Positions 13,495 through 37,729 are shown, counted from the stretch's first letter. The stretch: DNA of 64,000 nt from Gammaproteobacteria bacterium (GCA_015488555.1 WFNO01000122.1:12300-76299), one strand, 5' to 3'. Notes: generated by a model from the sequence alone, not told the origin. Numbers and translations: made by a program.

Positions 13495-13497
13495 TCC

Positions 13498-17023: not shown

Positions 17024-17035
17024 GGACGTGCCGCC

Positions 17036-18049: not shown

Positions 18050-18054
18050 GCGGT

Positions 18055-19881: not shown

Positions 19882-21647
19882 ACCGCCGTCGTTTCGGCCG
19901 GTACGGCCTGCGGCCCGATCTCCGGTGTCTTCTCTCCCTGACCCTGCTGGCCCTCGCCGCCCTGGTCCAGGATCCCACTCGGGAACTGGCGGCGGCCACC
20001 CTCACGGCCGAGGTGGACCGCCGCCAGCTCTACGTCCACGAGCCCCTGCTGTTCACGCTGAGGCTCACCGACAGCGACACGCGCCTGCGGGCCGAAGGGC
20101 TGGACCCCAACGTGGATCTGAGCCGGCTCACCCGCGACTTCGAGCTGGGCGTGCCCCGCAGCAGCCACCGTTACAACATCCATCGCAACCGCGGCCGTTC
20201 CACCTCGGAACTCCAGGTGCTGTTGTTTCCCAAGCGCGAAGGGGAGCTGGAGATTCCCGCCTTCACCGTGGAGGGATTGCACACGGCCCCCATTCCCATC
20301 CGGGTACTGCCCGCTCCCCCAGATCCCGCTCCCGAGGTCTTCGCCCGCAGCGGCGCCACCAAACGTACAGTATGGGTGGGGGAGCGGACCGTGGCCTACC
20401 TGGATCTCTATTACCGGGTGGCGCTGCGCAATGCCCGTCTGGGCGGATCTCTGGACACGGAACCCAAACGCCTGCGCCTGCGCCCGCTGCCGGACGAGGA
20501 ACGCCGCGAGACCCATGCCGGCTTGGAATACCGGGTCACGCGCACGGCCTGGAGCATCACCCCGGTGACCGCGCAACCCATCACCCTCCTGTTCCCGGAC
20601 GTGTGGGTGGAAACGGAAGCCGGGAAAAAGATCCGCCTGCCGTTCACGGACGACCGCCTCGAGGTGCGGCCGCTGCCCCCCGGCATTCCGCCGGACTTGC
20701 TGGTGGGACGCCCGCGCCTGAGCCAGGCCCTCTCCTCCGGCACCGCCACGGTCCACACCCCTCTGACATGGACCATCACCCTGGAAGCGGCGGTGGATCT
20801 GCTGGCCCTGCCCGAAAGCCTGGCGCTGGCCGAGACCCCGGGGATCAAACTCTACAGCAACCGCCCACAGCGACAATGGCGCCCTTCTCCCGACCCGGAA
20901 ACCGGCACGCCCCTGGCCACCGCTCGCTATGACATCACCGTCATTCCCCTGCGCGCAGGCGAGCTGGCCCTGCCAGCTCCCGTCATCCCCTACTTCGACC
21001 CCCAGACCCGGCGCCTGGAACGGGCTACCCTGCCTCCCCTCACGCTAACCGTGGCCGCCCCCTCCACACCCGCCGTGCCGCCAGACGCCGTGGAGGAGGA
21101 AAGGACACCGGATAACCTGGCCCAAGATCGAGACGGGAAAGGAACGGAAGAACGGGGCGGAGACACAACGGAAGACCGGAGAGACGAACTGTGGGCTGGA
21201 TTGGCAGCGCTCTTCGCACTGCTGTGGTTGGCCACCCTGTGGCTGTGGTGGCGGGCGCGCCGACAGCGCCCATCCCATGGAGCCGGCGACCCGACGCCCC
21301 CCTGGAACACCGACCCCCACCCCGCGGGCGATGGATCACCCTATGCGCGGCGCCTGTGCGTCGCCCTCGGTTCCTCCACCCTGGAAACCGGGCTGCAGCG
21401 CTGGGAGGCCCGTCACGGTCCCGATCCCGCTCTACGACGGCTGGTCGCCCAGGTCCAGTCCTTCCATTACGGCCCTCGCAAGGAGGAGATGGATGCAACC
21501 GCCATCGAGGCCGGCTTGCAGGATCTGGAACGCCGGATCCAAAACCGCACGGAAAAAGAGACGAGACATCCTGCCAGCGAAGAAGCGGCATCCGATCCCT
21601 GGCGGCCGGATCATTTCGGCCGCCGAGCATCTCCCCCTAGGGACTGA
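19875..21647 (+). CDS. BatD-like oxygen-tolerance family protein
   Basis: ATG at 19875 overlaps the previous stop (ATGGTGA). Signal peptide, a large periplasmic beta-rich domain, and a C-terminal TM (LWAGLAALFALLWLATLWLWW). Confidence 0.65.
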   Translation: MVNRRRFGRYGLRPDLRCLLSLTLLALAALVQDPTRELAAATLTAEVDRRQLYVHEPLLFTLRLTDSDTRLRAEGLDPNVDLSRLTRDFELGVPRSSHRYNIHRNRGRSTSELQVLLFPKREGELEIPAFTVEGLHTAPIPIRVLPAPPDPAPEVFARSGATKRTVWVGERTVAYLDLYYRVALRNARLGGSLDTEPKRLRLRPLPDEERRETHAGLEYRVTRTAWSITPVTAQPITLLFPDVWVETEAGKKIRLPFTDDRLEVRPLPPGIPPDLLVGRPRLSQALSSGTATVHTPLTWTITLEAAVDLLALPESLALAETPGIKLYSNRPQRQWRPSPDPETGTPLATARYDITVIPLRAGELALPAPVIPYFDPQTRRLERATLPPLTLTVAAPSTPAVPPDAVEEERTPDNLAQDRDGKGTEERGGDTTEDRRDELWAGLAALFALLWLATLWLWWRARRQRPSHGAGDPTPPWNTDPHPAGDGSPYARRLCVALGSSTLETGLQRWEARHGPDPALRRLVAQVQSFHYGPRKEEMDATAIEAGLQDLERRIQNRTEKETRHPASEEAASDPWRPDHFGRRASPPRD

Positions 21648-21693: not shown

Positions 21694-22437
21694 TCAGCCG
21701 TCCAAATCTTCGTCACGGGCCTTTTTCCCCCGGCCGGAAGAGGAAGACGAAGAGGGCGGACGGTCTGCCTGCCTTGGATTGGGCCTGGGATTGGCCGTTG
21801 ACAGGGGTTTATCCACGAAACCGTGTTCCACGGCATAGCAGATGAGTTCAGCAAAGTTTTTCATGCCCATCTTCTCGAGAATGCGGTTGCGATGGGTGCT
21901 GATGGTCTTCTCGCTCAAGGACAGGCGCTTGCTGATCTCGGCGTTGCGCAGTCCGGAAGCCAACAAGCAAAAGATCTGAAATTCCCGGTCGCTGAGTCGC
22001 TCGTGCGGGGCCAGTTCCTCTTCCTCCTGGAAACTGCGCGCCAGTTTTTGAGCCACGGAGAGGGTGATATATTTCTCACCGCGCCCCACCTGTTGCAAGG
22101 CCTGCAGCAATTCTTCGGTCTTGCACCCCTTGGTAAGATAGCCTGCGGCGCCTGCCTTCAAGGCGCGCAGGGCATACTGGTCCTCGCTGTGCATGCTCAG
22201 CACCAGCACCGCCACCTCAGGCCAACGGCGCTTGATCTCCTGCAACACTTCCAGACCGTTCATGCCAGGCAAGGTGAGATCCAATAACACCACGTCCCAG
22301 TGGTTCCGTTCCAGACTGCGCAGGACTTCGGGACCGCTGGCGGCTTCACCCACAACCTCGAATGTGGAATAATCGGTGAGGATTTGGCGCAGACCGGTAC
22401 GCACGATGGCATGATCGTCTGCAATGAGAATATTCAT
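21694..22437 (-). CDS. NarL/FixJ (LuxR)-family response regulator
   Basis: Receiver domain (MNILIADDH...LDLTLPGMNG), LuxR HTH (EISKRLSLSEKTISTHRNRILEKM), and an unusual Pro/Ser-rich C-terminal tail. Confidence 0.88.
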   Translation of the reverse strand: MNILIADDHAIVRTGLRQILTDYSTFEVVGEAASGPEVLRSLERNHWDVVLLDLTLPGMNGLEVLQEIKRRWPEVAVLVLSMHSEDQYALRALKAGAAGYLTKGCKTEELLQALQQVGRGEKYITLSVAQKLARSFQEEEELAPHERLSDREFQIFCLLASGLRNAEISKRLSLSEKTISTHRNRILEKMGMKNFAELICYAVEHGFVDKPLSTANPRPNPRQADRPPSSSSSSGRGKKARDEDLDG

Positions 22438-22662: not shown

Positions 22663-23370
22663 TCAGGGTCGAGGTGAGACTTTTCCGTTTGGTGTCGCCT
22701 CGACCGCAGCCCTGAGTAGCAGAAAATCCAGCACCGCCATCATCTCACCCACATTGCGCACCATGCCAGGATCCACGCGATAGCGCCCCTCTACAATGAT
22801 GGTGGGCGCCCCTCGGATCCCGTAGCGTCGACTCATGATGCGGGCTTGGCGCACTTTGCGGGCGGTGAACGAACTGCGCATAGCGGTACGAAAGGCTTGG
22901 GGATCAACGCCCTGTTCAATGAGAAAATCGGCCAGGGCTTGCTCGTCGTCCAGGCGCCGATGTTGGCGGTGAATGGCGGTATAGAGGTCGTCGTGTATGT
23001 CATCCAGCACTCCCAGGGCCTGAGCTGCATAGAAAACCTGGGCAAAGAAAGTCATATCCTCGTTGGTGATAGCAGGCATACGCCGGTAATGGATGACTGC
23101 CTGATTGCGCTCCCGCCATCGCCGCAGTTGAGGCTGGATGGCCAAACAGGTGCGGCATCCGAACCAGAGCAATTCCACCACTTCCACGCGTTCTCCTCCG
23201 CGAGTGGGCTGAGGAGGGGTCACCAGCTGATAGTGCACCCCAGCCATAAAGCCACTTTGGGATCCACTGCGAAGATCGCCGGTCGCAGCGGCGCCCGTCT
23301 GCGACCACAGCAAGAGGAAGAAAGTCAGGAGCAGGAGGTTTCCGCCGGACGGGGTCAAACTTCCTTGCAT
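22663..23370 (-). CDS. DsbA-family periplasmic thiol:disulfide oxidoreductase (atypical CRTC active site)
   Basis: Signal peptide. WFGCRTC CxxC in a DsbA-like frame, ending ...YGIRGAPTIIVEGRYRV. GGAGG RBS. Confidence 0.7.
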   Translation of the reverse strand: MQGSLTPSGGNLLLLTFFLLLWSQTGAAATGDLRSGSQSGFMAGVHYQLVTPPQPTRGGERVEVVELLWFGCRTCLAIQPQLRRWRERNQAVIHYRRMPAITNEDMTFFAQVFYAAQALGVLDDIHDDLYTAIHRQHRRLDDEQALADFLIEQGVDPQAFRTAMRSSFTARKVRQARIMSRRYGIRGAPTIIVEGRYRVDPGMVRNVGEMMAVLDFLLLRAAVEATPNGKVSPRP

Positions 23371-23417: not shown

Positions 23418-24131
23418 CTAGTGCAGTGATTGAACAGGCAGTTCCCGCTGGTCGGCAGCCGGAGCATCACGTGAGGGACTGTTACGCTCTTCCCAACGCT
23501 GTCCCTGTTCCGCCAGCCATTGTGCCTCTTCCGGTGGCCGCGGACCACGTTGTAGGCGATCCTCCCATTCCCATAGCGCGGCTCGAGCCCGCCGCACGTA
23601 GGGATCCCCGGGTGGTGCCAGATGGATGTAGGTGCGCATGGCCCCCAAGGCAGCCGGCAGATCGCCCTGGGCCTCGAACACCTCTGCCAGCCCCCAATAG
23701 GCATTACCCTTGTAAGGATCCAACTCGATGGCGTTGCGAAAAAAGGCTTCCGCCTCCTGGTAGCGCTGCAGGCCAAGCAATGCAAAGCCCATGTTGACAT
23801 GCGCATCGGTGAGCCGGGGCGAGAGGGCCAACACGCGGTGCAATGCAGTGGCGGCATATTCATAACGACCCGCGTGCAACATCATTACTGCCTGCTGAAA
23901 ACGCAGACGAATCTCGGCCATGCGCGGATCTTGGATCTCGTCGGCATCCATACCGCCTTCCAGCCTGCTCTCGGCGTTGACCTCCTGCCAGAGACCTTCG
24001 GGCATACGGCTGGACCACAAGGGGCTGTAATCCAACTTCATAGCCCCCGCAAGCATGCCAGTAGCCACGAGCATGACGGTCACCATGACCAAAGACAGGG
24101 CCGCCACGGTACGCTCGGGTAGCGCACTCAT
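23418..24131 (-). CDS. membrane-anchored TPR-repeat protein
   Basis: N-terminal TM, then TPR-like helices (AIELDPYKGNAYWGLAEVFEAQGDLPAAL). Its ATG overlaps the ccsA-like stop (ATGA). Confidence 0.7.
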   Translation of the reverse strand: MSALPERTVAALSLVMVTVMLVATGMLAGAMKLDYSPLWSSRMPEGLWQEVNAESRLEGGMDADEIQDPRMAEIRLRFQQAVMMLHAGRYEYAATALHRVLALSPRLTDAHVNMGFALLGLQRYQEAEAFFRNAIELDPYKGNAYWGLAEVFEAQGDLPAALGAMRTYIHLAPPGDPYVRRARAALWEWEDRLQRGPRPPEEAQWLAEQGQRWEERNSPSRDAPAADQRELPVQSLH

Positions 24132-25000
24132 CAGATCACCCCCTTGTGGGCTGCCTCACTGTAGAAAGGCGTGCCGAAATAAGTCAAAAAAGCAAAGACG
24201 AAGATGCCGATAATGGCCAACGCTCCCACGTGTATTGGAATGCGATAGCTGAGGCGGGCATGCAAGGCCGCCCCCAGGAACAACCAGTTGAGAAAGGATG
24301 AGGTCTCCAGTGCATCCCAGGCCCAGTAGCGGCCCCAGGCGTCCTGAGCCCATACGGCACCCGCGATGAGCATCAAACTGTCGAAGATAAGCGCCAACAA
24401 CATGAAACGCCAAGCCATATGGTCCAGCACCTTGTCCGGTGGCAAGTGACGGAAGAAAGGCGCCACCCTGGGAATACGCCTCAAGAGAATGACACCGGCC
24501 AACCCCGAGCCTATCAGGCAAAAGGCCAGAAAGAATTTGCCGAACCCCACGTGCGCCCAAAGCCATTCGTTGTAGTAGGTAGGGGGATAGTGACTGTCCG
24601 AAGGCTCCAAGAGTAACACCCAGGTGCCCAGCACCCAGAGCATGGGCAACACCACCACCGCCGTAGGACGCAGCACCGGCAGACGCCAGTAGGCGACAGC
24701 ATATATCAATCCCAGGCTGAACAACTGACTGATAAGCAATTCGAAGAGGTTGACGAAGGGTCCATGACCGAGGCGTAACCAGCGCTCTGCCAGGGACGCA
24801 GTAAGCAAGATCACCCCACCGGTAAGTAGGGCCAGGACCAAGGACTCGTGGCTGCGGTTCACGGCTGCCCCAGCATCCCCCCCGCGGGTGCGAACGAGGC
24901 CGTAGAAAGCAGACAAGGTCGCCAGTGCATAGGCCACCAGTCCCGTATAGAGCCAGGGAAGTTCAGTAAAAACCGTTGCTTCGCTCATTTCGTTCATCAT
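24131..25000 (-). CDS. System II cytochrome c biogenesis protein CcsA/ResC-like (haem-handling W-rich membrane protein)
   Basis: WAQDAWGRYWAWDALE tryptophan-rich motif, flanking His residues, multi-TM. The ORF's N-terminal extension is rejected. ATG at 25000 overlaps the ResB-like stop. Confidence 0.85.
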   Translation of the reverse strand: MMNEMSEATVFTELPWLYTGLVAYALATLSAFYGLVRTRGGDAGAAVNRSHESLVLALLTGGVILLTASLAERWLRLGHGPFVNLFELLISQLFSLGLIYAVAYWRLPVLRPTAVVVLPMLWVLGTWVLLLEPSDSHYPPTYYNEWLWAHVGFGKFFLAFCLIGSGLAGVILLRRIPRVAPFFRHLPPDKVLDHMAWRFMLLALIFDSLMLIAGAVWAQDAWGRYWAWDALETSSFLNWLFLGAALHARLSYRIPIHVGALAIIGIFVFAFLTYFGTPFYSEAAHKGVI

Positions 25001-26034
25001 AGCTTGCCTCCGCCCCATGGTGCCGTTTCCAGTTCCGGTTCCGCGCCCTTGCGTGAGACTTCCCCGGCCTGGGGCCAGGGATGAGTGGCAAACTTGTTCC
25101 AGAAATAGGCCGCCAAACCCAGCACCCCAATGACGGCCGTGAGGAACAGCCACTGGAGAGTGGGGTCGTAGAACAGTTTGTACCCCATCCAACTGCTCAA
25201 GCCCTCGTAACGCAGCACGCCACCTGGTAGAGCCGTTGCCTGCCCCGGTAGCAATTCCTCTCGCTGTTCTCCACTGCGTAACACCAATATTCCGTGTGCC
25301 TTGCTTGGATCCAGGGTCCAAGCTTGATCCGCCTTGAGACCGGTCTCCAATTGCAACCAGAACTTGACCTCCTCCCCACCGGGAGGAGTCCACCGATTGG
25401 CCTGGCGAAAGTCGAACAGGGGATAGGAAGGCATGTGGATGGTGCCGGTCACCGGCTCTCCAGTTTCCGGGATCCAGGTAAGCACCGCAGCAAAACCTTT
25501 ATTGAATGTGGTATAAAAACGATAGCCCTCCAGTACTAGAGGTGTGTCGTCCCCCACCACGCGTCGTTCCCATCCACCCTGACCGTCAGGCACCAGCACG
25601 TGACTACGGGTGGGTCCGCGCATCATGCCTGGTCCATAATCCACCGTGAAAGGCCCCTGCACGAAGACCACCTTCTCCAACTCGCCACGATGCCAGGGGC
25701 CTTTGCGCACGTTCATGAGTTCGGCCGGATCGAAAGTACTGCCTTCCACCATCTCGATATGCGCCTCCATGTGGGTGAGGCGACCAATGGCAGCCAATAT
25801 CACAATTCCCAACAAGGAAAGATGAAAGATCAAGAGTCCAGGACGGCGGTTGATCCGGGCATTGCTCATCACCGCCGCCAGCAGATTGACGGCCAGCAAG
25901 GCCATGGGAGCCACCAACGCCCAGACGGGGGTATCCACGGGATTGTCGTAGCTGAGGGCGGCCCCCACGGCCAGCAGGGCCATGCCCAGCAAGGTGAAAC
26001 GGGTGGAGGAAAGGCGCCTCAACAAAGCGGTCAT
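24997..26034 (-). CDS. ResB/CcsB-like cytochrome c biogenesis protein (short form)
   Basis: ResB-like N-terminus (LRRLSSTRFTLLGMALLAVGAALS), TM His (LIFHLSLLGIVIL), a periplasmic domain and a C-terminal TM. Lies immediately upstream of the ccsA-like gene. Confidence 0.7.
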   Translation of the reverse strand: MTALLRRLSSTRFTLLGMALLAVGAALSYDNPVDTPVWALVAPMALLAVNLLAAVMSNARINRRPGLLIFHLSLLGIVILAAIGRLTHMEAHIEMVEGSTFDPAELMNVRKGPWHRGELEKVVFVQGPFTVDYGPGMMRGPTRSHVLVPDGQGGWERRVVGDDTPLVLEGYRFYTTFNKGFAAVLTWIPETGEPVTGTIHMPSYPLFDFRQANRWTPPGGEEVKFWLQLETGLKADQAWTLDPSKAHGILVLRSGEQREELLPGQATALPGGVLRYEGLSSWMGYKLFYDPTLQWLFLTAVIGVLGLAAYFWNKFATHPWPQAGEVSRKGAEPELETAPWGGGKL

Positions 26035-28715
26035 GGTGGATTCACACAGGCTTCGGAACTACCCAACATCCAGGTGGCACCATTGAAACCATTGCCGGGT
26101 GCCCCAGCCGAACCGCAATTGGCCTGGGTCCATTCCCCGCTGCGGGCGAACTTGCGCACCTTGAGCACAGCACCGTTGTAATACGGACCATTGTAATAAC
26201 GCGCAGTGGTGTGATTGCGCACTTGCCGGCTGCTGGCATCCCCTGCTCCGGCTGGTTCACCAGCGAGCAGCGGCGCTTCCAACCCCACGTCGTTGAGATT
26301 GGCCAGGAACACTTTGTTCTTCCACCCATGGGGAATGGCGATGTGACAGAAGGTACAGCTGAAATCAGTCACCCTGCCGGCATGCCCCACGTGCAGATTG
26401 ATGTTCCTAAAATCAAGGCAGCCGACATTCACTCCAATGTTGGTGCTGAACCCGCTACTCAGCACAGAGGCATCAGGAAACGAGGCATCACCACGGCCAT
26501 ATTGATCGTATTCGTGGCATTTGAAACAGAGATGATTGAACGGTCCCGGGGGACGCGCCTCACCAGTCTTGTCGTCCCAGTCGCCCTTGAGCAAGAAGTT
26601 GTGGTCAGAACCGTGTGGCCCCCAGGGGTAACCGTTCTCGTCATTGGGCACCACTGTCTCCGGCGCGGTGGATGAGCCGTGACAGTCGGTACAATACATG
26701 GTCTGAGTACCCACCGCGACATTGAAGGGCGAAAGCCAGTCATCGGCATTCGCCTTGCGCACCTGGGGCGTGCGCCCGGTGGGTTTGACCACTGGATGCC
26801 AGGAGCGGTGATTGTCCGTCACCCAGTTCACACAATTGCCGTCCTTGTCCCGATAGGCCGGTACCGTACCGCCCGTCTCCACCGTGGAATCCGGCTCATT
26901 GGGATCGATGAGCATGGTACATTCGCCCACGCTGCCAGCGAAAGCTCCCGTCGGCGTAACAGGCGTGCCTTCTCCCATGTGGTCGTCGGGCGACTGGAAT
27001 TCCATGGCCTGGTTGGTGTACTGGAAGAGGGCGTTGGTACCTGGCGGCGTACCACCCACAAAGGAACCCAGCATGGGCGGTTGATCATAGGTGTAGTTGG
27101 AATGGCACTTGAAACAGAGTTGGTACTCGCGGGTGAGATAGGGTGCGCTGACATCGGTGCTGCCGCCCGTACCGGGATCGCCGCGTTTCACCTCGAAAGT
27201 CACCGGCTCGCTGCCGAATTCGGTGGAACCGTAGACAGGCTCCACGCCCCAGATGCCCCGCAATACCCCGGAAGCCAGATTGGTATGCGGCACGCCATCT
27301 TCGTGCAGATGGGTACCGGCGGGATCGGGCACGGTACTGTCCGCGTTGAACAGGCGGTTACGCGTCACCCGATGGGGATTGTGGCAATCGGTGCACTCGA
27401 CATGGCGATTGTTGAGATTGCCCTTACCCAAGTTCTCCGGCGCCTCGATGAAATCCTGCCCCCGCCGGTCTCCTTGGGTTGCCGTGCTGCCCGTACCGAT
27501 GCTGTGCACCTCGGTACCTGCGGGCTGATCCGAGCTGGCGATTGGCATTCGCCGCGCCATGGTGGTGAAATCGGTCTTAATGTCCGGCACCTCGAAAGAG
27601 AAATTAGTACTGGGATTGACCTGCCCCTGCAGTGTGTTGCCGTCGGCGGAATGGCAGGCATAACATACTTCTTCCACCGCTGGATTGCCGCCCTGTTTAT
27701 AGCGGGCGCCGTCCGCCGTGGTGAACACGGGGCCATCGGTACCCTCTCTGAGTAAGCGCCTTGCTCCCTGAACTGTGTGGGGATCGTGGCAGTTGAGACA
27801 AGCAGCCTGCCAAACGCGCAGATCACGGGGAAATTCGCGGAGATCGGCAGCGGCATCCGTATAACGTTCGTCGGCCACGGCGGGATGGGCGTGCGCCGAC
27901 CCCACCCAGCCGTCTTTATCGTGACAGGCCAGACAAATGATGTCGTTGTCACGATCGAAACGCCCATCCACCGGCTCTTGTTTCTGGAAGCGGTTGACGC
28001 GCAGGAACTTGATGTTCTCTCCGGGCACATCGGAACGCAGGTGCGGATCATGACATGTGATACATTCCACCTTGCCATCCTCCAAAGGCAGATAATCTCC
28101 CTGCGGAGCGGCCGGCGGGCTGCCACGGGTGCGCTCGTTGATGTGGGCCACCACTGCCGGATCGAACAATTCTCCATCCCGAGCCGCCTGACTGCTGTCA
28201 TAGGTAAAAGAAATAGGATGGTCGTTGCTCAGATCCACTCCCAGGCGACGCGTAAAGCCAGTGGTTTCCCCCAACCCTTCGGGAATGGTGCCATCGGCCT
28301 TGGTGCCGGTGAAGGGAATGTTGGGATTCTCGATACGATTGAGCACGTTGACCGCGCCCAGGGCAATGGTGCCGTCATGACAGGACAGGCACAGTTTGGA
28401 TTTTCCGCCTGGCTGCCCCAGATCCGTGGCATCCAGCGATGTAGAACTGAAGGGAATATAGGTGGCGGAAGACAGCTGGCGGTTCCACAGGGGTGCCGCC
28501 TGTTCCGGTGTGGCACCGTGGGGAGTGTGGCAAAAGGCACAGATCTGGGATTCACTGCTGGCGTGGGCCTGGCGTTCAACCCCTTGAGGAACGACGGTGG
28601 CGGAGAAATTGTGCTTGGTATTGCTGATGTCGGAGATGATGTCCGCCCAGACCACCCCAGGCCACGGCAACAACATCCACACTAAGCCCACCGCCAACAC
28701 CCACGGACGCTTCAT
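26031..28715 (-). CDS. secreted undecahaem c-type cytochrome (~895 aa) with an N-terminal doubled-CXXCH module
   Basis: Eleven CxxCH motifs counted (CAFCH, CLSCH, CITCH, CLACH, CLNCH, CYACH, CTDCH, CFKCH, CTDCH, CFKCH, CTFCH). Signal peptide MKRPWVLAVGLVWMLLPWPGVVWA. The N-terminus NTKHNFS...CAFCHTPHG...PLWN...CLSCHDGT is paralogous to the start of 37730..38566. Confidence 0.88.
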   Translation of the reverse strand: MKRPWVLAVGLVWMLLPWPGVVWADIISDISNTKHNFSATVVPQGVERQAHASSESQICAFCHTPHGATPEQAAPLWNRQLSSATYIPFSSTSLDATDLGQPGGKSKLCLSCHDGTIALGAVNVLNRIENPNIPFTGTKADGTIPEGLGETTGFTRRLGVDLSNDHPISFTYDSSQAARDGELFDPAVVAHINERTRGSPPAAPQGDYLPLEDGKVECITCHDPHLRSDVPGENIKFLRVNRFQKQEPVDGRFDRDNDIICLACHDKDGWVGSAHAHPAVADERYTDAAADLREFPRDLRVWQAACLNCHDPHTVQGARRLLREGTDGPVFTTADGARYKQGGNPAVEEVCYACHSADGNTLQGQVNPSTNFSFEVPDIKTDFTTMARRMPIASSDQPAGTEVHSIGTGSTATQGDRRGQDFIEAPENLGKGNLNNRHVECTDCHNPHRVTRNRLFNADSTVPDPAGTHLHEDGVPHTNLASGVLRGIWGVEPVYGSTEFGSEPVTFEVKRGDPGTGGSTDVSAPYLTREYQLCFKCHSNYTYDQPPMLGSFVGGTPPGTNALFQYTNQAMEFQSPDDHMGEGTPVTPTGAFAGSVGECTMLIDPNEPDSTVETGGTVPAYRDKDGNCVNWVTDNHRSWHPVVKPTGRTPQVRKANADDWLSPFNVAVGTQTMYCTDCHGSSTAPETVVPNDENGYPWGPHGSDHNFLLKGDWDDKTGEARPPGPFNHLCFKCHEYDQYGRGDASFPDASVLSSGFSTNIGVNVGCLDFRNINLHVGHAGRVTDFSCTFCHIAIPHGWKNKVFLANLNDVGLEAPLLAGEPAGAGDASSRQVRNHTTARYYNGPYYNGAVLKVRKFARSGEWTQANCGSAGAPGNGFNGATWMLGSSEACVNPP

Positions 28716-29794
28716 GATTCCCCCCAGTCCCTCAAGTACTCGAATATCATCACGCGACCGTTGAAGGCATCGGCCACATAGACCCACCCGCGGTGGTCGG
28801 TCCACACACCCGCAGGCAGATAAAACTGCCCAATGCCATTACCCGTCCCGCCGATCGGCAGCAGGAACTCCCCTTTCTCATTGAATATTAACAGATGATC
28901 GTAATAGGATTCCACCACGTACAGATTGCGGTCCTGATCAACGGCCACGCCCTTGGGACGCGGCAGATCGCCAAGATAGAGCCCGCGGCGACCTACACTA
29001 CGCACGAAACGCCCCTCACGATCGAAGACTTGCACCCGGGAATTGAGAGTGTCTGTCACATAGAGTCTTCCGTCGGCGAAGGTCAAGTAAGTAGGAGCAT
29101 TGAATTCTCCCGGCCCATGTCCTCGCCGCCCCCAAGTAGCCACCAAAACACCGTCCCGGTCGAAGACCTTCACGTCGTGGGCCTTGCTGTCCGCCACGTA
29201 GATGAGTCCACTCACCGGATCGCGGGCCACGCCCACGGGACGCTGCAGAACGCCTTCCCCCATGCTGCCCTGGGGCTTGCCCTGCTCGTTCAAGATCACC
29301 ACGCGCCGCAGGTCCGCGTCTGCGACAAGTATGTATCCCGGCTCACCCGCCGTCACACCCAAAGGCGTGAGAAAATGCAAATTTGCTCCGGCCTCCTCCC
29401 AGATCTGCAGACCGTCTTTCGGATCGAAGACGTATACCGCTGCTCGGCTCACATCACTGACATAGATCCGCCCACGCGCATCGGTATACCCCCCCTGCGG
29501 GCGCTGCAGGACACGCGGGCTATGCGGTCCTGTAGCCAAGCCCACCAGCCAAGCCAATACCTTGCGACCGACAGCGGTCCGTTGGCCACGGTAATTTTCC
29601 TCGCCGGTCAATTGTCCCATGTAGCGATAGCGAGGGCGCTCAGGTGGCGGTGGCCACACCGGCGGGGCATCGTCCAGCTCATCAAATCGCAAAGCAGAAC
29701 TGGGGCCGCCGGCACACCCTCCGGCCAATATCAGGACCACCACCATGAAACCGGCAGCCACACCCCGCGTCAGAGAGGCAAGACGGCAAGACAT
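28712..29794 (-). CDS. NHL-repeat six-bladed beta-propeller lipoprotein
   Basis: Lipobox LAGGC. Repeated blades of the form G-F-x-x-P-x-G-V-A-V-D-x-x-x-x-L/I-Y-V-x-D, with an NHL/N(S)R-V-Q-V-F motif recognisable in at least one blade. ATG overlaps the upstream stop (ATGA). Confidence 0.8.
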   Translation of the reverse strand: MSCRLASLTRGVAAGFMVVVLILAGGCAGGPSSALRFDELDDAPPVWPPPPERPRYRYMGQLTGEENYRGQRTAVGRKVLAWLVGLATGPHSPRVLQRPQGGYTDARGRIYVSDVSRAAVYVFDPKDGLQIWEEAGANLHFLTPLGVTAGEPGYILVADADLRRVVILNEQGKPQGSMGEGVLQRPVGVARDPVSGLIYVADSKAHDVKVFDRDGVLVATWGRRGHGPGEFNAPTYLTFADGRLYVTDTLNSRVQVFDREGRFVRSVGRRGLYLGDLPRPKGVAVDQDRNLYVVESYYDHLLIFNEKGEFLLPIGGTGNGIGQFYLPAGVWTDHRGWVYVADAFNGRVMIFEYLRDWGES

Positions 29795-30807
29795 CACTGC
29801 ACGCGTGGCGTTTCCGCCCGTTCTAGATTTTGGCGTGTAGCCTCTAGAACCTGGATGCGACCATTCATGGCATCGGCCACGTAGAGCAGGCCACCTTCCA
29901 GCCAAAGATCGGCAACGCGCTTGAACTGTCCGGGCGCAGTTCCGGAACGTCCCACAGAAAAACGGTAATGAGTGCCCTCGAAGACCCGGATGGTGTCGGT
30001 GAGATAATCGCCGACATAGGCCCAGCCGCGGGCATCCACGACGATGGAAGTGGGAAAAATCACCGTATCCTTCTCGAAAGACGCGAGAGGACCGCCGTCA
30101 GGCGCTATCACCTGAACCCGGGATTCTCCATAACGTGTGGCCACATAATAGCCTTCCGGCCCTAGGGCGAAGGCAGTGACGCCACGAAAACGCCCCGGGC
30201 CTTCTCCGCGCTCTCCGATGGCACCGCTGAGCAACCCCGCCCGGTTGTAGACCAGCACGTCGTCGTTGAAACCATCTGCGATGTACAAGGTACTGGTGGC
30301 CTCGTCCACCACCACGGCCACCGGCCGCCCCAGGTTGATGCGGTCCTCATAGACACGAATCAGGCGGTCGTCGCGGTCGAAATACAAGACCCGGCCACCG
30401 TCGAAATCGGCTAGATAATAGGAAAGATCGGAAGCCACGTAGATATCGGACACCGTACCGCTTACCAAGCGGCGCAAATCCTGAAGGATACGCAATTCTC
30501 CGCGGTCCCGACGATAGAGCAACACCTGTTCCAGGCCTTCGTCCACGATGTACACCGCAGGCCCGCGAGCAGCTACGGCCACGGGGCGGACGAGCCGCAC
30601 ATATTCCAATCCCGTGAGCAGATTACCGCCTCGCATTCCACCATCGATCACTTCCCATACCACAGGCTGTGTGCCAAGGGCACTTCCCGCGGCATCTCCG
30701 GAAGCGGGCACGGAACCCGGCTTCATAGCGCCGCAGCCGGCGGCAAACAGGAAAGCCGCTACGGCGATCAGCGCAACAATCTCGTTTCGTTGGGAACAGA
30801 ATGACAT
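29794..30807 (-). CDS. NHL-repeat beta-propeller lipoprotein (paralog)
   Basis: Lipobox LFAAGC. Blades YIADGFNDDVLVYN and LYVADAMNGRIQVL. Start 30807 overlaps the upstream cytochrome by about 40 nt, so it is somewhat uncertain. Confidence 0.72.
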   Translation of the reverse strand: MSFCSQRNEIVALIAVAAFLFAAGCGAMKPGSVPASGDAAGSALGTQPVVWEVIDGGMRGGNLLTGLEYVRLVRPVAVAARGPAVYIVDEGLEQVLLYRRDRGELRILQDLRRLVSGTVSDIYVASDLSYYLADFDGGRVLYFDRDDRLIRVYEDRINLGRPVAVVVDEATSTLYIADGFNDDVLVYNRAGLLSGAIGERGEGPGRFRGVTAFALGPEGYYVATRYGESRVQVIAPDGGPLASFEKDTVIFPTSIVVDARGWAYVGDYLTDTIRVFEGTHYRFSVGRSGTAPGQFKRVADLWLEGGLLYVADAMNGRIQVLEATRQNLERAETPRVQ

Positions 30808-31415
30808 CGGCCGCAATTCATGGTGGGGGGAAAGGCCACGTTCCCGTGACAGACTCCGCAATACTCTCCCTGGATGATGGCAGACATGGAAACGGGATTG
30901 GCGCCCTTCTGGGGAATAAAGATGAGCGGATGGCAATTGGCACAGGTCAGCCACTCGGTGTGCTGGCGGTGCGGGAAACGCACGTGCGGCATGGAGGCGG
31001 TGTCCTTGAAAATGATATCGAAGTCCACTGGAAACATATCTCCCTCACCGTCCACGGACTTGCGGGGATCAATGAGCCCCATCTCCAGAGTCTTGACCCA
31101 GTCGATGATACCCTGGGAATCACGTGGAAAATTGGCCATGGCTTCGTAGGGTTGCTGCAACACCGCCACTGCCTCACTCGCAGGATCGTGAATGCCATCC
31201 TCAGCGATGGGCACGATGTCGCCTGTCAACTGAAAGTGCTTGCCGCGCGACCAGAACGGCTTAGCCACATCGGCCGGATTCTGCAAGAGCTGCGGGGTCT
31301 TGGCTGGCGTGGCGGCCATGGCTATCGGCCATACCGGAAGGAAAATGGCGAGACACACGGCCCACAAGAGCCTCAAACCGCCGCTCACTCGTTTTCCACT
31401 TTGGCACCCGTTCAT
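30768..31415 (-). CDS. periplasmic trihaem c-type cytochrome (family A)
   Basis: CANCH, CGVCH and CGRCH, signal peptide. Paralog of 33399..34064, sharing DGIHD...FPHRQHTEWL.C.NCHP.IFIPQKGAN...CGVCHG.VAFP. Confidence 0.8.
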   Translation of the reverse strand: MNGCQSGKRVSGGLRLLWAVCLAIFLPVWPIAMAATPAKTPQLLQNPADVAKPFWSRGKHFQLTGDIVPIAEDGIHDPASEAVAVLQQPYEAMANFPRDSQGIIDWVKTLEMGLIDPRKSVDGEGDMFPVDFDIIFKDTASMPHVRFPHRQHTEWLTCANCHPLIFIPQKGANPVSMSAIIQGEYCGVCHGNVAFPPTMNCGRCHSVPNETRLLR

Positions 31416-31548: not shown

Positions 31549-33279
31549 CTAGCGGACTCCCGCCAGACGCAAGGCTCGCTGAATGTGGGTCGTCGCCCCT
31601 TGCAGCATGAGTATGGCCGTCTTGTAATCCCCCTTCGCTGCGGTGGGCAAGGCCTGCGCCTTGATGCCTTTTGCCTTTTCCACGAAACGGTTCATCAACT
31701 CCACCGTCTGCGGTGAAGGACGCCGCTGTTCGATGGCCAGCGGAATCAGTTCCTCGTAACTCTCGTAACGCGCCAGCTCGTATTCGTACTCTTCCTTCGG
31801 CGTCTCAAAGACCAACTCATAAGACATAGTCTCCTCGTGGAGCATATCGGTCAAGGCATTGTTGAGGTCCTCCTGGGCCCGCGAGAGGACTTGCACGGCT
31901 TCGGCGTAATCACCCTCCTCGGCCAGGCGCCGGGCCTCGGTCTTGGCGGCCTCGATGCGTGCTACGTCCAATTGCGGAATCTCCTTGCGGTGGCGCTGCT
32001 TGCTCAGGCGCTGGTAATTGCGCTGGTAAGAGGCCTGAAAGGTCTCTACGCCTTGGAGTAATTCTTTGAAGCGCTCCTGCAAGGCAGCCTGATCACTCTC
32101 GGCAGGCACGCGCCGGGAGGCTTCGCTCATAAGACGCAGGGATTCGTCTACCAACGCCAGGGCCTGTTCGAAATGTTGCTCGTCGAAAGCCGCACGTGAG
32201 GCCTGCAGCTTGTCCCGGGCATCGCGTAGAAATCCTTGCGCCACGGTATTTCCGCTGCCCTCGATACGACGGGCAGCGCTGGATTGATTGACGAACAGCT
32301 CGGCAAAGGCCAGTTTCTGCTGCACCTGCCCTTTACTCACACGAGGACGGTCTTCAAGGGCCGGAGCGGCAGCGACAGCCGGGTGTGCAGGGGTCGCCGC
32401 CAGTTTCACCTTCACATGGTCCTCCTCTCCCTCATCGACGATGTGGATGACACCGCCCATGTTCTTGTGATTGCGACACTGGTAATACAATACGTCAGGC
32501 GCGGAAGCATCTGGCGTAAAGGTGACCACACCGTTGTAGGTGAAATTACCCTCCACCCCTTTGGAATAGGTAGCTGCCCCCCAGCCGGTCTCACTCCGAG
32601 AGAGATAGAAGTCGTGCTGGACGTTGGTGTTCACTTTGAACGTATAAGTCTTGCCGCGCACCAGGATCAGAGACTTTCCTTGCACACCATCGACGATAAA
32701 ACCATATTTGTCGCCCACCCCATAGTAGGGATGCGAGGGATCCTTCAACCCCAGCGTCACCTGAAACACAAAGGGATTGACGTCCTCCTTCTGCACCACG
32801 GGTGCTGGTTGCCGTCCAACAGGTGCCGATGCCACGTCGCGATCGGCAGCAAGGACGGATGGAGACTCCCCAGATATCGATTTTTCAGATGCTGATTCTT
32901 CCTGCTCCGCAGCCTCCGCGACAGCGGATTGTGCAGCGGCCACCTCAGGCTCGGTGGCCGCCGGCACACCCGAATCCGCCTCAGGAATCGCGCGCCCCTG
33001 TCCAAGAGGCTCGAACCGTGCAGATTCCGGGACTGGAGCAGCCTCGACCACCGGCTGGGATTCCAGAACCAACTCCCGCTCCGGCTCGGACTGTATTTGT
33101 TGCGATGCGGGAGCAGATATCGGTGCAGCCGCGGGCGCGACCGTCTCCGCAGGTGGCGCCTGGTCAACAGGCGCTGGCATCTCCTTGCGCGTAGCACAGG
33201 ACACCAGCGCCAGGCCAAGCACAAGAGCAAGTGCAGGCACGACCACGTGCAAGTCTTGGGCTGCACCCCGACTACGCAT
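31549..33279 (-). CDS. lipoprotein with Ala/Pro/Glu-rich linker, cupredoxin-like (amicyanin-type Cu site) domain and C-terminal alpha-helical domain
   Basis: Lipobox LALVSC. A disordered low-complexity region of about 150 aa. Candidate type-1 Cu ligands: H in NVQHDFY, and C, H, M in YYQCRNHKNMGGVIHIV (compare the amicyanin C-x-P-H-x-x-M motif). Coiled/helical C-terminal half. Start is 33279 or 33291. Confidence 0.6.
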   Translation of the reverse strand: MRSRGAAQDLHVVVPALALVLGLALVSCATRKEMPAPVDQAPPAETVAPAAAPISAPASQQIQSEPERELVLESQPVVEAAPVPESARFEPLGQGRAIPEADSGVPAATEPEVAAAQSAVAEAAEQEESASEKSISGESPSVLAADRDVASAPVGRQPAPVVQKEDVNPFVFQVTLGLKDPSHPYYGVGDKYGFIVDGVQGKSLILVRGKTYTFKVNTNVQHDFYLSRSETGWGAATYSKGVEGNFTYNGVVTFTPDASAPDVLYYQCRNHKNMGGVIHIVDEGEEDHVKVKLAATPAHPAVAAAPALEDRPRVSKGQVQQKLAFAELFVNQSSAARRIEGSGNTVAQGFLRDARDKLQASRAAFDEQHFEQALALVDESLRLMSEASRRVPAESDQAALQERFKELLQGVETFQASYQRNYQRLSKQRHRKEIPQLDVARIEAAKTEARRLAEEGDYAEAVQVLSRAQEDLNNALTDMLHEETMSYELVFETPKEEYEYELARYESYEELIPLAIEQRRPSPQTVELMNRFVEKAKGIKAQALPTAAKGDYKTAILMLQGATTHIQRALRLAGVR

Positions 33280-33398
33280 GATCACTCTCATTAGTATCGA
33301 ATGCTACTGCCGCAGCCCTACTGCTGTCTCAATCCATACCCACACGCCGCTCGGCCTTTTATTTTGATCAAGACAAACGATGATGTTGCTCCCCAGGT

Positions 33399-34064
33399 TT
33401 ATTTCCAAGGATTCTTCAACGTCGCCTCACTGAGTGGCGGTTGCCAATCCGCTGGCTTGGGCTTGGAGTGGCACTTCTTGCATGTCTTGGTTTCGATAGG
33501 GAAGGCCACCTTGCCATGACAAACACCACATTTCTGCCCCAGGAGAATGGCCGACATGTTGATCTGGTTGGCCCCCTTCTGGGGAATGAAGATAGCCGGA
33601 TGGCAATTGGAACAGAGCAGCCATTCCGTGTGCTGGCGATGCGGAAATACCACGTCGGGTACAGAAGCCTTGACCGGCCGTACGATGTCCAAATCCATCA
33701 CGAAAGGCTCGGCATTAGAATCGAGCAAGTCCCAGCGTGGCTTGATCAGCCCCTCATCCAGGGCCTTGACCCAATCTACGTGGTTGCCAAAACTAGTCCT
33801 GGGCAATCCCTCGTATGCCTCCAAAGGAGGCTGCAGATTGAAAGTGGCCTCGTTGGTGGTATCGTGGATACCGTCTTCCCACGGTGGCGCATTCGGGTTT
33901 TTGGGTTTCTTCAGATTGAGGTTGAAGGTGTTGGCCGCCGATACCTCTCCCATCATCAACAACCCCTGAATCGCGTTACCGGCTGCCGGTACCGAAGTAC
34001 TCCAAACGGCGGCGATCAGCAGCACAGCGCTGGAAACGATGACGAACCCGTTCTTCAAACTCAT
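33399..34064 (-). CDS. periplasmic trihaem c-type cytochrome (family A paralog)
   Basis: CSNCH, CGVCH and CKKCH. Signal peptide. GGGGAGAG RBS. Confidence 0.82.
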   Translation of the reverse strand: MSLKNGFVIVSSAVLLIAAVWSTSVPAAGNAIQGLLMMGEVSAANTFNLNLKKPKNPNAPPWEDGIHDTTNEATFNLQPPLEAYEGLPRTSFGNHVDWVKALDEGLIKPRWDLLDSNAEPFVMDLDIVRPVKASVPDVVFPHRQHTEWLLCSNCHPAIFIPQKGANQINMSAILLGQKCGVCHGKVAFPIETKTCKKCHSKPKPADWQPPLSEATLKNPWK

Positions 34065-34088: not shown

Positions 34089-34535
34089 TTATTTGTTGTC
34101 GGCGGTCTTCTTGGCAGGCAGGGGCTTGTAGGCCGGTGCTACCAGACGTTGTAGAGTGCTGCCATGGAAATGGGTAGGGGTACCCGGAATGCCCGAATGG
34201 CACATGGCACAGTTCTCCACCGACCAGGCCACCTCACCGTTGTGGCAGGCACCACAGAACTTGCCGTCGATGATCTTGGCCATGGTGATCTGATTGCCAC
34301 CAGCCTTGAATTTAAATCCGAGATCGGCATGACACACCTTACAGCGGAAACGGATGCGATGGAACCAATGAGGGAAAACCGCTGGGCGCATACCGGCGGC
34401 ATCGGAATAGTTGTTGATGACGACGTCTCCGTACTCGGCCTTCGAAGGTTGGGCCACCCCTGCGAACAATAAGACCGCGAAGGCTCCCAAAACGAACGGT
34501 TTCCATGCCCCCCTGTGCTTGATCTTCAGTGCCAT
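34089..34535 (-). CDS. small trihaem cytochrome c (cytochrome c3/c7-like)
   Basis: CKVCH, CGACH and CAMCH within 148 aa. FPHWFH...IDGKFCGACHNG pattern. GAGGAGAGG RBS at an internal ATG. Confidence 0.82.
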   Translation of the reverse strand: MALKIKHRGAWKPFVLGAFAVLLFAGVAQPSKAEYGDVVINNYSDAAGMRPAVFPHWFHRIRFRCKVCHADLGFKFKAGGNQITMAKIIDGKFCGACHNGEVAWSVENCAMCHSGIPGTPTHFHGSTLQRLVAPAYKPLPAKKTADNK

Positions 34536-34725
34536 AGCAGATCCTCTCCTCACGCTTTGTTCTTATAGATTATGGCCTTACTCGCCACTGCAGGCGTCAT
34601 TATACCTCGAATCCCGCACGCTGCCCATGCGCAGCGGCCGCCCCCGGGTCCATGCCGCCGTGCCTGCGAACGGCCTGCCCCACGTTTCCTCCCGCCCGGC
34701 ATCACAAGCAGGATTTTACATGGGG

Positions 34726-36543
34726 TCAAAACAGGCGGTTCACCTGGAAATAGATCAGGCTGAAACTCTGGTCCTCTCCTCCTCCTCCGGTCAGATCGAA
34801 ATAGCGCCAGCTCATTCTCAACCGGGTCAAACCAATGGTGTAGTCCAGGCGGTTCTCCCATTCGAGACGATCCATGTTGCCCGACACGTCCGTGCGGGAG
34901 AGGCGCAGATCCGACAGGAAACGCAATCGCGGTACACCAAACACCGCACTGTGGGTGTAATTCAACTGCCCCGTTCCCGTTACTCTATCATTAACCCCCT
35001 GGCGGTTGAAGTCCTGGCTCACGTACTGGATGGTGAGATTACCTGTCAGATTGCTGAGCCGGTCGAGATAGCGGGTCCGCTGAATCTGGAAATTGACAAA
35101 CTGTTGATTGCCTTCCTGATCCCCGAAGGAACGGCCATCGGAGAGGGTCACTTGCAAAAAGCTGGTGGCCTCCGGGGAAGAAGCGTCCCAGGACAAACTG
35201 CCCGAATTGTCCAAGCGTTGCACCGAGGTCTCTACATCACCCATCTGTTCGTCACCGCTCACTGTCTGACTGAGGCTCAGGCGGATATTGGAACGCCGGC
35301 CGATCACCCACAGGCGCTGAATATCGTGCCCCAGTTTGAGCAGAAAGGATTGATCCTGGCGCTGTGGTGCGTCTCGCGCACTGGCCGTACCCTGGGTATA
35401 CCACTGATAGTTGAACCCAGACCAGAGAGGGCGAATGTCCGACTGATAGAGAGCGCCGGCGCGGCCCCTAGAAATGAAATCTGCACCGTCGCCGTTGTCA
35501 CTGCTGAGCACATCGACGTTGGCATCGAAACGCAGGTTGCGGGTGTACTGATAGAACATTCCACCAGTAGCGCTGAAATTGGTGAGTTCTACCTCGTTGC
35601 CCACCGTATCGGCCTGTAGCCCATAGAAGCGCACCCCTCCACTCAGGGTCAACGGCCGATCCAAGGGCCGCCAAAACACAAAGCTGGACAATTGCGTCAG
35701 ATCGGTGTCGCTGTCGGGTTGATTGGTACTATTGAGCGGCTGTTTCGATTCGTAATCGGAATTGTAGATGTTGAACATGGTATCCAGCCGCAAGGCACGG
35801 TTGGGAAAGTAGAAATGATCCACATTGAGAATGAAGGTATCGGTCTTCTGATCGATCACGGAGCGTTCGCTGCTCTGGATGCTGCTCTTGGCAATCAAGG
35901 TCTGCTTGGGCATTTTCAGATCCGCCTCCACACCGAACAGCTGGTCCCGGTAATTCTCTCCGCCCGGTTGCTGCTGCTCCCAATCGTTGCGGTCATAACG
36001 CAATTGGAAGCGGTGTCCCTTCTGAGTGTAGAAGGATTGCTTCAGCGATAGGCGACTGGTACGGAACTCGGTGCTGCCCAGGGTATTCAAGGGACTGGAG
36101 CGGGCCACCAGGTCCACCCGACTGTCGCTGGCCTGGTAGGTAAGCAGGAAAGGGGTGCGACTACGGGGCAGTATGCTCAGGTTGAGGTTACCCGTGAGGA
36201 TGGAAGACTCGTTGGAGCTACTTCCTTCGAACTCGGATTTGTCCCAAGTGAAGCGCAAACCGGTATCGGCAGTGGCCAGCCAGGGCCTGCCGAGATAACC
36301 TTTGAGATTGAGGCCCCCCTGTAACTGATTGCTGACGGTATCTTCCTGGCCGGTGTTGTCCAAGGCGCGAAAGGTATATCCGAGGTTGCCGGAAACATCG
36401 GTAAGGGCAAAGGCCCACGCGCACACGGACCAAGCCCACAGGCAGCAACCGCAAGCCAAGCGCAGCAACTCTACCCCCGCTTCCGAACCTCGAAATCGCT
36501 GACCATTGCCCCCGGCACAGACCCGCGGGCTGCTCCATCTCAT
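34726..36543 (-). CDS. large outer-membrane beta-barrel protein (~600 aa, MtrB/PioB-like size class), no haem motif
   Basis: Signal peptide ...AWAFA. Alternating amphipathic beta-strand pattern throughout. C-terminal ...YFQVNRLF with a terminal Phe, typical of OMPs. Confidence 0.7.
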   Translation of the reverse strand: MRWSSPRVCAGGNGQRFRGSEAGVELLRLACGCCLWAWSVCAWAFALTDVSGNLGYTFRALDNTGQEDTVSNQLQGGLNLKGYLGRPWLATADTGLRFTWDKSEFEGSSSNESSILTGNLNLSILPRSRTPFLLTYQASDSRVDLVARSSPLNTLGSTEFRTSRLSLKQSFYTQKGHRFQLRYDRNDWEQQQPGGENYRDQLFGVEADLKMPKQTLIAKSSIQSSERSVIDQKTDTFILNVDHFYFPNRALRLDTMFNIYNSDYESKQPLNSTNQPDSDTDLTQLSSFVFWRPLDRPLTLSGGVRFYGLQADTVGNEVELTNFSATGGMFYQYTRNLRFDANVDVLSSDNGDGADFISRGRAGALYQSDIRPLWSGFNYQWYTQGTASARDAPQRQDQSFLLKLGHDIQRLWVIGRRSNIRLSLSQTVSGDEQMGDVETSVQRLDNSGSLSWDASSPEATSFLQVTLSDGRSFGDQEGNQQFVNFQIQRTRYLDRLSNLTGNLTIQYVSQDFNRQGVNDRVTGTGQLNYTHSAVFGVPRLRFLSDLRLSRTDVSGNMDRLEWENRLDYTIGLTRLRMSWRYFDLTGGGGEDQSFSLIYFQVNRLF

Positions 36544-37623: not shown

Positions 37624-37729
37624 GTCTGTCCTCCTCTTCGCACATCCCACCGCCCACAGCAGTCCCTTCTGCTCAGATCCGATTCAGATCCGCCCCGTAA
37701 CCGCTCCAGTATCAGTCCCGGATCTGCGC

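Follow-up and report, generated by a model that had tools for sequence, protein, structure and literature searches.

Two described systems are among the closest to the locus considered here. The first is the 'undecahaem electron transfer' (uet) cluster, a uetABCDEFGHIJ-ccsAB-nrfG-bat module of 'Candidatus Tenderia electrophaga' and its relatives, in which UetC is a 28-strand barrel and the 'NHL repeat units' UetH and UetI are presumed to serve protein-protein interaction (Eddie et al., bioRxiv 10.1101/2022.05.06.490989); the module is also present in some Gallionella (PMC10734462). The second is the OmcE nanowire cluster, which occurs in five phyla, including Pseudomonadota, and whose minimal form always contains two multihaem cytochromes, two beta-propeller lipoproteins, OmcE and a large beta-barrel (bioRxiv 10.1101/2025.10.22.684050). 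Here we analyse two adjacent genes in a 64,000-nucleotide (nt) stretch of DNA from a Gammaproteobacteria bacterium (GCA_015488555.1, WFNO01000122.1:12300-76299; hereafter the window, with positions counted from its first letter). We identify them as the uetH and uetI genes of a uet cluster carried by an uncultured gammaproteobacterium, and their products probably form a non-catalytic, outer-membrane-anchored scaffold for porin-cytochrome or nanowire assembly. The features on which the argument turns are as follows.

29794-30807, minus strand: uetH, NHL-repeat six-bladed beta-propeller lipoprotein, 337 residues (open reading frame, Pfam, AlphaFold2, Foldseek)
28712-29794, minus strand: uetI, NHL-repeat six-bladed beta-propeller lipoprotein, 360 residues (open reading frame, Pfam, AlphaFold2, Foldseek)
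30768-31415, minus strand: uetG, third c7 trihaem cytochrome (3 CXXCH; Pfam Cytochrome_C7; NCBIfam nanowire_3heme)
26031-28715, minus strand: uetJ, undecahaem cytochrome with an OmcE-like N-terminal module (11 CXXCH; residues 26-231 match 7TFS)
30768-30807, minus strand: 40-nt out-of-frame overlap of the uetG 3' end and the uetH 5' end (sequence, comparison across loci)
29792-29796, minus strand: uetH stop and uetI start, TGATG, 1-nt overlap at base 29794 (sequence)
28712-28715, minus strand: uetI stop and uetJ start, ATGA, 4-nt overlap (gaatcATGAag; sequence)
30733-30807, minus strand: predicted signal peptide and lipobox of UetH (MSFCSQRNEIVALIAVAAFLFAAG followed by C25), with M1 and C25 invariant in 31 orthologues
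29714-29794, minus strand: predicted signal peptide and lipobox of UetI (MSCRLASLTRGVAAGFMVVVLILAGG-C27, ending in ...FMVVVLILAGG before C27-A), with C27-A28 conserved
29594-29659, minus strand: conserved N-terminal motif of UetI, VWPPPPERPRYRYMGQLTGEEN, residues 46-67, just after the lipid anchor (orthologue alignment)

The identification of the two genes rests on gene order, which in the window matches that of the published uet cluster and recurs in about 80 loci. One genome per species was scanned, and 342 genomes contain a UetI relative; the synteny and locus counts given below rest on the 80 best loci among these. In these loci, the order A-B-C-D-E-F-G-H-I-J-ccsB-ccsA-nrfG is almost invariant, including in metagenome-assembled genomes (MAGs) of Candidatus Tenderia, in which three loci (L049, L062 and L081) contain syntenic H and I genes and a UetI about 56% identical to that of the window (a value measured on the MAG copies; the Tenderia reference proteins are ALP54629.1 and ALP54908.1). 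An earlier note on this DNA had placed the two NHL genes between a trihaem and an 11-haem cytochrome, and this is borne out by the 3 CXXCH motifs of the gene upstream and the 11 of the gene downstream. The uet system has already been named, and UetH and UetI have been described; the window is a further example of it.

Neither gene is a chance open reading frame (ORF), since a 360-residue protein identical to UetI, with the same start, is on record, the homologue E values are as low as 1e-244 to 1e-120, and a UetI relative is present in so many genomes. Among the candidates scored, UetI has 3,200 relatives at E <= 1e-5, the top 120 of which are all 54-86% identical to it, and UetH has 178 homologues at E <= 1e-5. 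The full ORFs are longer than the genes (29794-30954 around uetH and 28712-29905 around uetI, both on the minus strand); the ATG codons at 30807 and 29794 give the 337 and 360 residues listed above.

Both products are six-bladed NHL propellers, as had been proposed from the sequence. Scored with the Pfam hidden Markov models (HMMs), UetH and UetI reach 25.4 and 75.1 bits, respectively, against NHL (PF01436), the gathering threshold of which is 20 bits, and 26.9 and 88.7 bits against DUF5128, the '6-bladed beta-propeller' family. The AlphaFold2 (AF2) monomer models, which were built with orthologue alignments, have predicted local distance difference test (pLDDT) scores of 90.5 for UetH and 88.5 for UetI, and both contain six four-strand blades (24-27 strands in six groups). 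Short strands lie ahead of the propeller in both models (residues 56-62 of UetI; 52-59 and 68-71 of UetH), and, read from the strand list alone, these may be the fourth strand of blade 6. When the models are compared with the PDB using Foldseek, the NHL domains of Thin, TRIM2, TRIM3, TRIM71 and Brat rank first; the best E values, against the Thin/TRIM NHL domains, are 7e-21 for UetI and 4e-16 for UetH, and the target-normalised TM-scores against these domains are 0.77-0.87 (E values 1e-16 to 1e-21). A profile search of the PDB sequences agrees with this ranking. Identity to the nearest protein- or RNA-binding NHL domains in the PDB is about 30% for UetI (29-32%) and about 20% for UetH. The two proteins are paralogues of each other, with about 34% identity over the C-terminal blades.

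In propeller enzymes, the conserved metal ligands of the tunnel are a His triad in PAL and Glu/Asn/Asn/Asp in the SGL type. No His is invariant in UetH (31 orthologues) or UetI (32 orthologues), and UetH has no invariant Glu. The single invariant Glu of UetI, E295, is at the strand-B position of blade 5, and this residue and the invariant Asp/Asn residues occupy the one-per-blade signature positions of NHL repeats. Scanning for the SMP-30 family, which had been suggested as a check alongside the NHL scan, gives a marginal and partial result: Pfam SGL matches UetI with 28.2 bits (cut-off 26.3) over residues 243-309 only, with no individually significant stretch, it does not match UetH, and no full-length family match is found in either. 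Pfam Arylesterase matches UetI weakly. PAL is the only enzyme in the Foldseek list, where it ranks 23rd for UetI and 46th for UetH. Neither protein contains a CXXCH haem motif.

The start of uetH at 30807 had been flagged for checking because of an overlap of about 40 nt with the preceding cytochrome gene. The overlap is exactly 40 nt and is conserved, and the start is strongly supported by orthologue N-termini, by its placement across loci and by codon usage. In the window, the ATG of uetH falls on the Cys-His codons with which the last CXXCH of UetG ends (cgA TGT CAT). C-G-R-C-H is written TGC GGC CGA TGT CAT; in the frame of uetH, this becomes ATG TCA T.., giving Met-Ser, and a TGC codon for the same Cys gives Met-Pro. 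Because the ATG is written across this haem motif, the UetH orthologues nearly all start with MS or MP; a basic stretch and a hydrophobic core then lead up to the invariant Cys. There are 58 loci in which uetH comes directly after uetG, and in 52 of them the ATG is at exactly that site; in these 52, the UetG tail past the last CXXCH is always 10 residues long, which makes every overlap 40 nt. In 55 of the 58 loci, the Cys is preceded by an A-ending Arg codon (CGA in 37 and AGA in 18); of the other 457 Arg codons of UetG, only 11% end in A, although this comparison is not a formal probability, as the loci are related. The use of two different A-ending Arg codons argues for selection that maintains the uetH ATG inside the CXXCH of UetG.

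The conserved start also puts right a probable annotation error, the calling of truncated UetH proteins that lack the signal peptide. For example, in one locus (L004, 8746-9993) the gene caller starts UetH at 8824, just past the lipobox Cys, and the signal peptide is thereby lost from the called protein; the conserved ATG-in-CXXCH start is at about 8746. A similar miscall may lie behind the published 'cytoplasmic' UetH of Tenderia.

At the next junction, uetH ends in ...CAG TGA and uetI starts at the A of that TGA. The earlier note had described an ATGA overlap between the two NHL genes; the junction is in fact TGATG, and the ATGA is found instead where uetI meets the 11-haem uetJ. The translational coupling that it had proposed stands; the 1-nt overlap lies within an unbroken chain of overlaps from 24131 to 31415 (minus strand): 40 nt between uetG and uetH, 1 nt between uetH and uetI, 4 nt between uetI and uetJ, between uetJ and ccsB and between ccsB and ccsA (all three ATGA), and 1 nt between ccsA and nrfG. 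Seven consecutive genes are chained in this manner, so the coupling of the NHL genes is part of a larger translationally chained block, in which the cytochrome structural genes and the dedicated haem-attachment (System II) genes look translationally linked. No recognisable Shine-Dalgarno sequence is present in the upstream sequence inspected for uetH and uetI; uetJ has a G-rich one, GGGGGG. For comparison across loci, alignment-anchored lipobox detection was used. Of the 70 loci compared at the uetH/uetI junction, 22 have a gap of -4 or -1 nt, 16 have one of +1 to +4 nt and a further 20 have one of up to 25 nt; the uetI/uetJ gap (79 loci) is -4 nt in 40 and -1 nt in 19, the uetJ start overlapping the UetI stop in 75% of the loci.

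Both precursors begin with a basic N-terminal region and a hydrophobic core that lead to a lipobox Cys (...LFAAG-C25 in UetH and ...ILAGG-C27 in UetI). The lipoboxes noticed at first inspection are supported by conservation of the Cys in the orthologues of each protein. In particular, at least 90% of the 32 UetI orthologues have C27-A28, and the UetI lipobox is mostly L-[AS]-[GA]-C-A across 79 loci, the A-G-G-C of the window being uncommon. At the level of sequence, UetH and UetI are shown by these features to be lipoprotein precursors of the Sec/SPII type. According to the rule established for E. coli, a lipoprotein without Asp at position +2 is sorted to the outer membrane; both proteins are predicted to be sorted there because neither has Asp at this position. 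The tether between the anchor and the propeller is variable, disordered and often acidic in UetH, with 28-90 residues and pLDDT < 50, and is short in UetI. In the conserved motif of UetI, W47, P48, P51, R55, Y56, G60, L62, G64 and N67 are invariant, and WPPxPExPR...G leads into the modelled beta-strand at residues 56-62, just ahead of the propeller.

This motif links UetI to the OmcE clusters. At the omcE locus of Geobacter sulfurreducens, the genes are in the order ppcA, resB, ccsA, two multihaem cytochromes, a 361-residue NHL lipoprotein, omcE, a 752-residue barrel and glycosyltransferases, and this order is repeated in two further loci. UetI is 33% identical to the Geobacter NHL lipoprotein (E = 2e-46), to which UetH has weak similarity (E = 7e-13), and W-P-P-x-P-E-x-P-R after the lipobox is invariant both in UetI and in the NHL lipoproteins of Geobacter/Desulfuromonadales OmcE clusters. 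By homology, lipobox and WPPxPExPR, UetI is therefore assigned to the OmcE-cluster propeller lipoprotein family, with UetH as a more divergent paralogue. Only one NHL gene was found in the three Geobacter-type loci examined, although the preprint on these clusters has two propeller lipoproteins. The 578-nt gap before Geobacter omcE contains no open frame, and the 752-residue barrel gave no BLASTP match to UetC (no profile comparison was made).

The cytochromes of the cluster are also related to OmcE. UetA matches the OmcE filament subunits 9YUQ (Desulfuromonas soudanensis; E = 2e-25) and 7TFS (Geobacter sulfurreducens; E = 3e-23). All four CXXCH motifs align, as do the NTKH, TPH, DHP and HxxH stretches, which we read as carrying the four further haem-ligating His residues that are conserved in OmcE (bioRxiv 10.1101/2025.10.22.684050). 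Residues 26-231 of UetJ are likewise OmcE-like (7TFS, E = 4.5e-18), and UetJ has the appearance of an OmcE module to which a further seven haems have been joined. A literature search found no paper that states the correspondence between Uet and OmcE, only reviews that name both separately. The remaining genes of the cluster are as follows.

37730-38539, minus strand: uetA, tetrahaem cytochrome, OmcE homologue (4 CXXCH; PDB 9YUQ and 7TFS matches)
36559-37650, minus strand: uetB, PpiC/SurA-type prolyl isomerase
34726-36543, minus strand: uetC, 605 residues, candidate large outer-membrane beta-barrel (position conserved in 68 loci)
34089-34553, minus strand: uetD, c7 trihaem cytochrome
33399-34064, minus strand: uetE, c7 trihaem cytochrome
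31549-33291, minus strand: uetF, 580-residue putative lipoprotein
24131-26034, minus strand: ccsB/ccsA, dedicated System II cytochrome c maturation (Pfam ResB and Cytochrom_C_asm; junction sequences)
23418-24131, minus strand: nrfG, tetratricopeptide repeat (TPR) protein

UetC has no match in the Pfam or NCBIfam scans, and NCBIfam contains no model for UetH, UetI, UetC or UetF, giving sub-threshold ScyF/ScyE matches only. UetF is apparently another lipoprotein (...LALVS-C-A), with a long Pro/Ala/Glu-rich linker, a middle domain without a Pfam or NCBIfam family that is called 'cupredoxin' in the literature, and a C-terminal half that appears helical by eye.

Median identities of the orthologues to the window proteins are about 70% for UetA, UetD, UetE and UetG, 59% for UetJ, 55.7% for UetI and 43.5% for UetH (the range for UetH, UetB, UetC and UetF being 38-44%). 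This ranking fits a picture in which UetI is a constrained partner of UetJ and UetH is the more adaptable element. In a second variant of the cluster, two genes are added: uetA is preceded by a third NHL (UetI-like) gene, and a fourth c7 gene separates uetG from uetH. This variant is found in Betaproteobacteria (Sideroxyarcus, Rhodoferax and Noviherbaspirillum) and in several further gammaproteobacterial MAGs, its loci including L034, L037, L046, L056, L060, L066, L071, L074, L077, L084, L085 and others; L085 belongs to the complete genome of Noviherbaspirillum sp. ST 5-3 (NZ_CP176528.1), which is not labelled as a MAG. In a related sub-form, as in the Thioalkalispiraceae loci L042 and L073, uetH was undetected in the locus comparison.

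The scaffold reading that we prefer takes UetH and UetI as non-catalytic protein-binding platforms at the outer membrane. They would hold the non-lipidated multihaem cytochromes, above all UetJ, and/or a UetA polymer of the OmcE type in alignment with the UetC beta-barrel. On this view, they would be neither redox nor hydrolytic enzymes but subunits that serve the structure or assembly of an electron conduit across the outer membrane. The signal peptide of UetJ is an ordinary one, without a lipobox, so that UetI, a lipoprotein partner that would be made in a fixed ratio to UetJ, is a plausible membrane anchor. This functional idea is equivalent to the hypothesis already published for the two proteins. 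The earlier note had preferred a structural or docking role to catalysis: the preference is favoured by the NHL-scaffold neighbours, the marginal SGL match, the lack of an invariant His and the strict porin/cytochrome synteny, and the role itself is our interpretation of these observations.

Several points weigh against this reading. The +2 sorting rule was established for E. coli, and the organism of the window may not follow it. As UetH is less conserved than UetI and was undetected in some variant clusters, the two proteins may not share one function. The lack of conserved His/Glu leaves room for an unusual active site, or for a small-ligand or mineral-binding role, on the propeller face. 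Furthermore, the physiological role of cytochrome filaments is itself described as debated in one source (PMC11077965).

Among the alternatives, a real if minority possibility is that the propellers assist in the assembly or secretion of an OmcE-type cytochrome polymer without being permanent subunits. They would act at the UetC barrel like usher/chaperone accessories, or like OscD, which is proposed to control OmcS filament morphology, and would direct how UetA is exported, polymerised or spaced, UetJ being a base or tip subunit. The four CXXCH motifs and aligned His stretches that UetA shares with OmcE suit such a role, as do the OmcE-like module with which UetJ begins and the presence of a propeller lipoprotein and a large barrel in the conserved core of OmcE clusters. 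A parallel is offered by the osc operon of G. sulfurreducens, for which one account proposes the use of the prolyl isomerase OscH (cf. UetB), of OscE/F/G for secretion and of OscD for morphology (PMC13194489). However, filament formation by UetA is a prediction from OmcE homology, and the tight stoichiometric coupling of uetI and uetJ fits a stable partner better than a chaperone needed in catalytic amounts.

We strongly doubt that the propellers are instead surface-exposed adhesins or substrate binders that attach the cell or a cytochrome to mineral, electrode or exopolymer, along the lines proposed for the NHL protein Gmet_0556. The long, variable and often acidic tether could project the UetH propeller off the membrane, and Bat/VWA attachment genes adjoin the cluster, but the UetI tether is short, no surface-export signal is known or detectable, and the strict gene order and the overlaps with cytochrome genes suggest protein partners.

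Hardly credible, finally, is the reading of UetH and UetI as SMP-30/gluconolactonase/PON/PAL-like metalloenzymes unrelated to the cytochromes: the SGL and Arylesterase matches of UetI and the occurrence of PAL among the structural matches would fit it, whereas the HMMs (a partial SGL match in one protein), the conservation (no invariant His in either family and, as regards Glu, E295 alone) and the structural neighbours (NHL scaffolds that outrank every enzyme by many orders of magnitude) tell against it, as does a cytochrome linkage conserved across phyla.

In its widest form, our proposal would make the uet cluster the proteobacterial, electron-uptake counterpart of the OmcE nanowire machine, a reading that, with all the roles it assigns, we consider distinctly unlikely. 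UetA would polymerise like OmcE, and UetJ would be the base or tip subunit; a tip subunit has been asked after for OmcE, with no candidate found in the OmcE operons (bioRxiv 10.1101/2025.10.22.684050). UetI, kept in a fixed ratio to UetJ by the ATGA overlap, would tie the wire to the UetC barrel by its WPPxPExPR arm, and UetH, on its long tether, would be a second, adjustable clamp. If this were true, the 40-nt overlap with the UetH start inside a haem motif would be a hard-wired stoichiometry device.

What is new here is the overlap that places a start codon in a CXXCH and so settles where UetH begins, the recognition of UetH as a lipoprotein with six blades, the orthology of UetI with the OmcE-cluster lipoproteins marked by WPPxPExPR, and the OmcE-like module at the UetJ N-terminus. 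These details are modest and are of interest to specialists in extracellular electron transfer. By the Uet pathway, CO2-fixing bacteria are proposed to take up electrons from cathodes or minerals, and experimental access to the part played in it by UetH and UetI is offered by lipoproteins with a fixed, conserved start, by the membership of UetI in the OmcE-cluster family and by Noviherbaspirillum sp. ST 5-3, which is apparently cultured.

Beyond nrfG, two further genes precede the Bat-like region of the window.

22663-23370, minus strand: dsbA, DsbA
21694-22437, minus strand: LuxR-type response regulator

BatD/VWA genes lie on the other strand beyond the regulator gene. This region (15547-21647, plus strand) contains DUF58, VWA, VWA-TPR and BatD (Bat-like) genes and has a G+C content of 72-73%, compared with about 60% elsewhere in the window. 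The genes at 6263-14130 (minus strand) form a complete System I set for cytochrome c maturation, which comprises an ABC ATPase (CcmA-like), CcmB, a CcmC-like protein, CcmE, CcmF, a thioredoxin-like CcmG, CcmH and CcmI/CycH; as this set is about 10 kb from the System II ccsBA of the cluster, both maturation systems are close together in this genome. At 336-2897 (minus strand) there is a HAMP-PAS-GGDEF-EAL protein, and the adjoining ORFs 3134-4762 and 4536-5807 (minus strand) are rich in 'two-component regulator propeller' repeats; the overlap of about 230 nt between these two ORFs could mean a frameshift or one long sensor gene. At the other end, 58000-62000 has a lower G+C content (53-55%) and includes an NrfD/polysulphide-reductase-like membrane protein at 60421-61872.

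Among known systems, the eukaryotic TRIM-NHL domains (Thin, TRIM2/3/71 and Brat) have the fold and repeat signature in common with UetH and UetI. They belong, however, to cytosolic E3 ligases, in which they bind RNA or protein; they are neither lipoproteins nor connected with cytochromes.

Like the uet cluster, the osc operon brings together a nanowire cytochrome, a prolyl-isomerase chaperone (OscH, cf. UetB) and proteins for secretion at the outer membrane (OscEFG, cf. UetC); it also has a protein described as propeller-like (OscD). Shen et al. (2025, Cell Chem Biol) are said to call OscD 'beta-propeller-like' and OscE/F/G 'channel-like', and OscD reportedly binds haem, whereas UetH and UetI lack CXXCH. 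In addition, the cytochrome of the osc operon is OmcS, which is not of the OmcE family.

The Tenderia uet cluster has the same order as that of the window: tetrahaem cytochrome, prolyl isomerase, beta-barrel, c7, c7, 'cupredoxin', c7, NHL, NHL, undecahaem cytochrome, ccsB/ccsA (ccsAB in the naming of the Tenderia paper) and TPR protein. The organism of the window, represented by the MAG GCA_026997555.1 and by ENA metagenome scaffolds, is a different, uncultured gammaproteobacterium, and in the window dsbA and the LuxR-type regulator gene stand between nrfG and the bat genes. Tenderia UetH has been published as a cytoplasmic, seven-bladed protein, whereas UetH of the window has a conserved lipoprotein signal and six blades.

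Of the propeller lipoproteins of the Geobacter sulfurreducens and Desulfuromonas OmcE clusters, the 361-residue Geobacter protein shares with UetI the lipobox, WPPxPExPR and six NHL blades. Both propellers are accompanied by multihaem cytochromes, among them an OmcE homologue, and by ResB/CcsA and a large beta-barrel. The clusters differ in gene order, and no prolyl isomerase, c7 triplet or cupredoxin-like gene is present in those of Geobacter, which have glycosyltransferases instead. Electrons are proposed to flow outward in Geobacter and inward for Uet.

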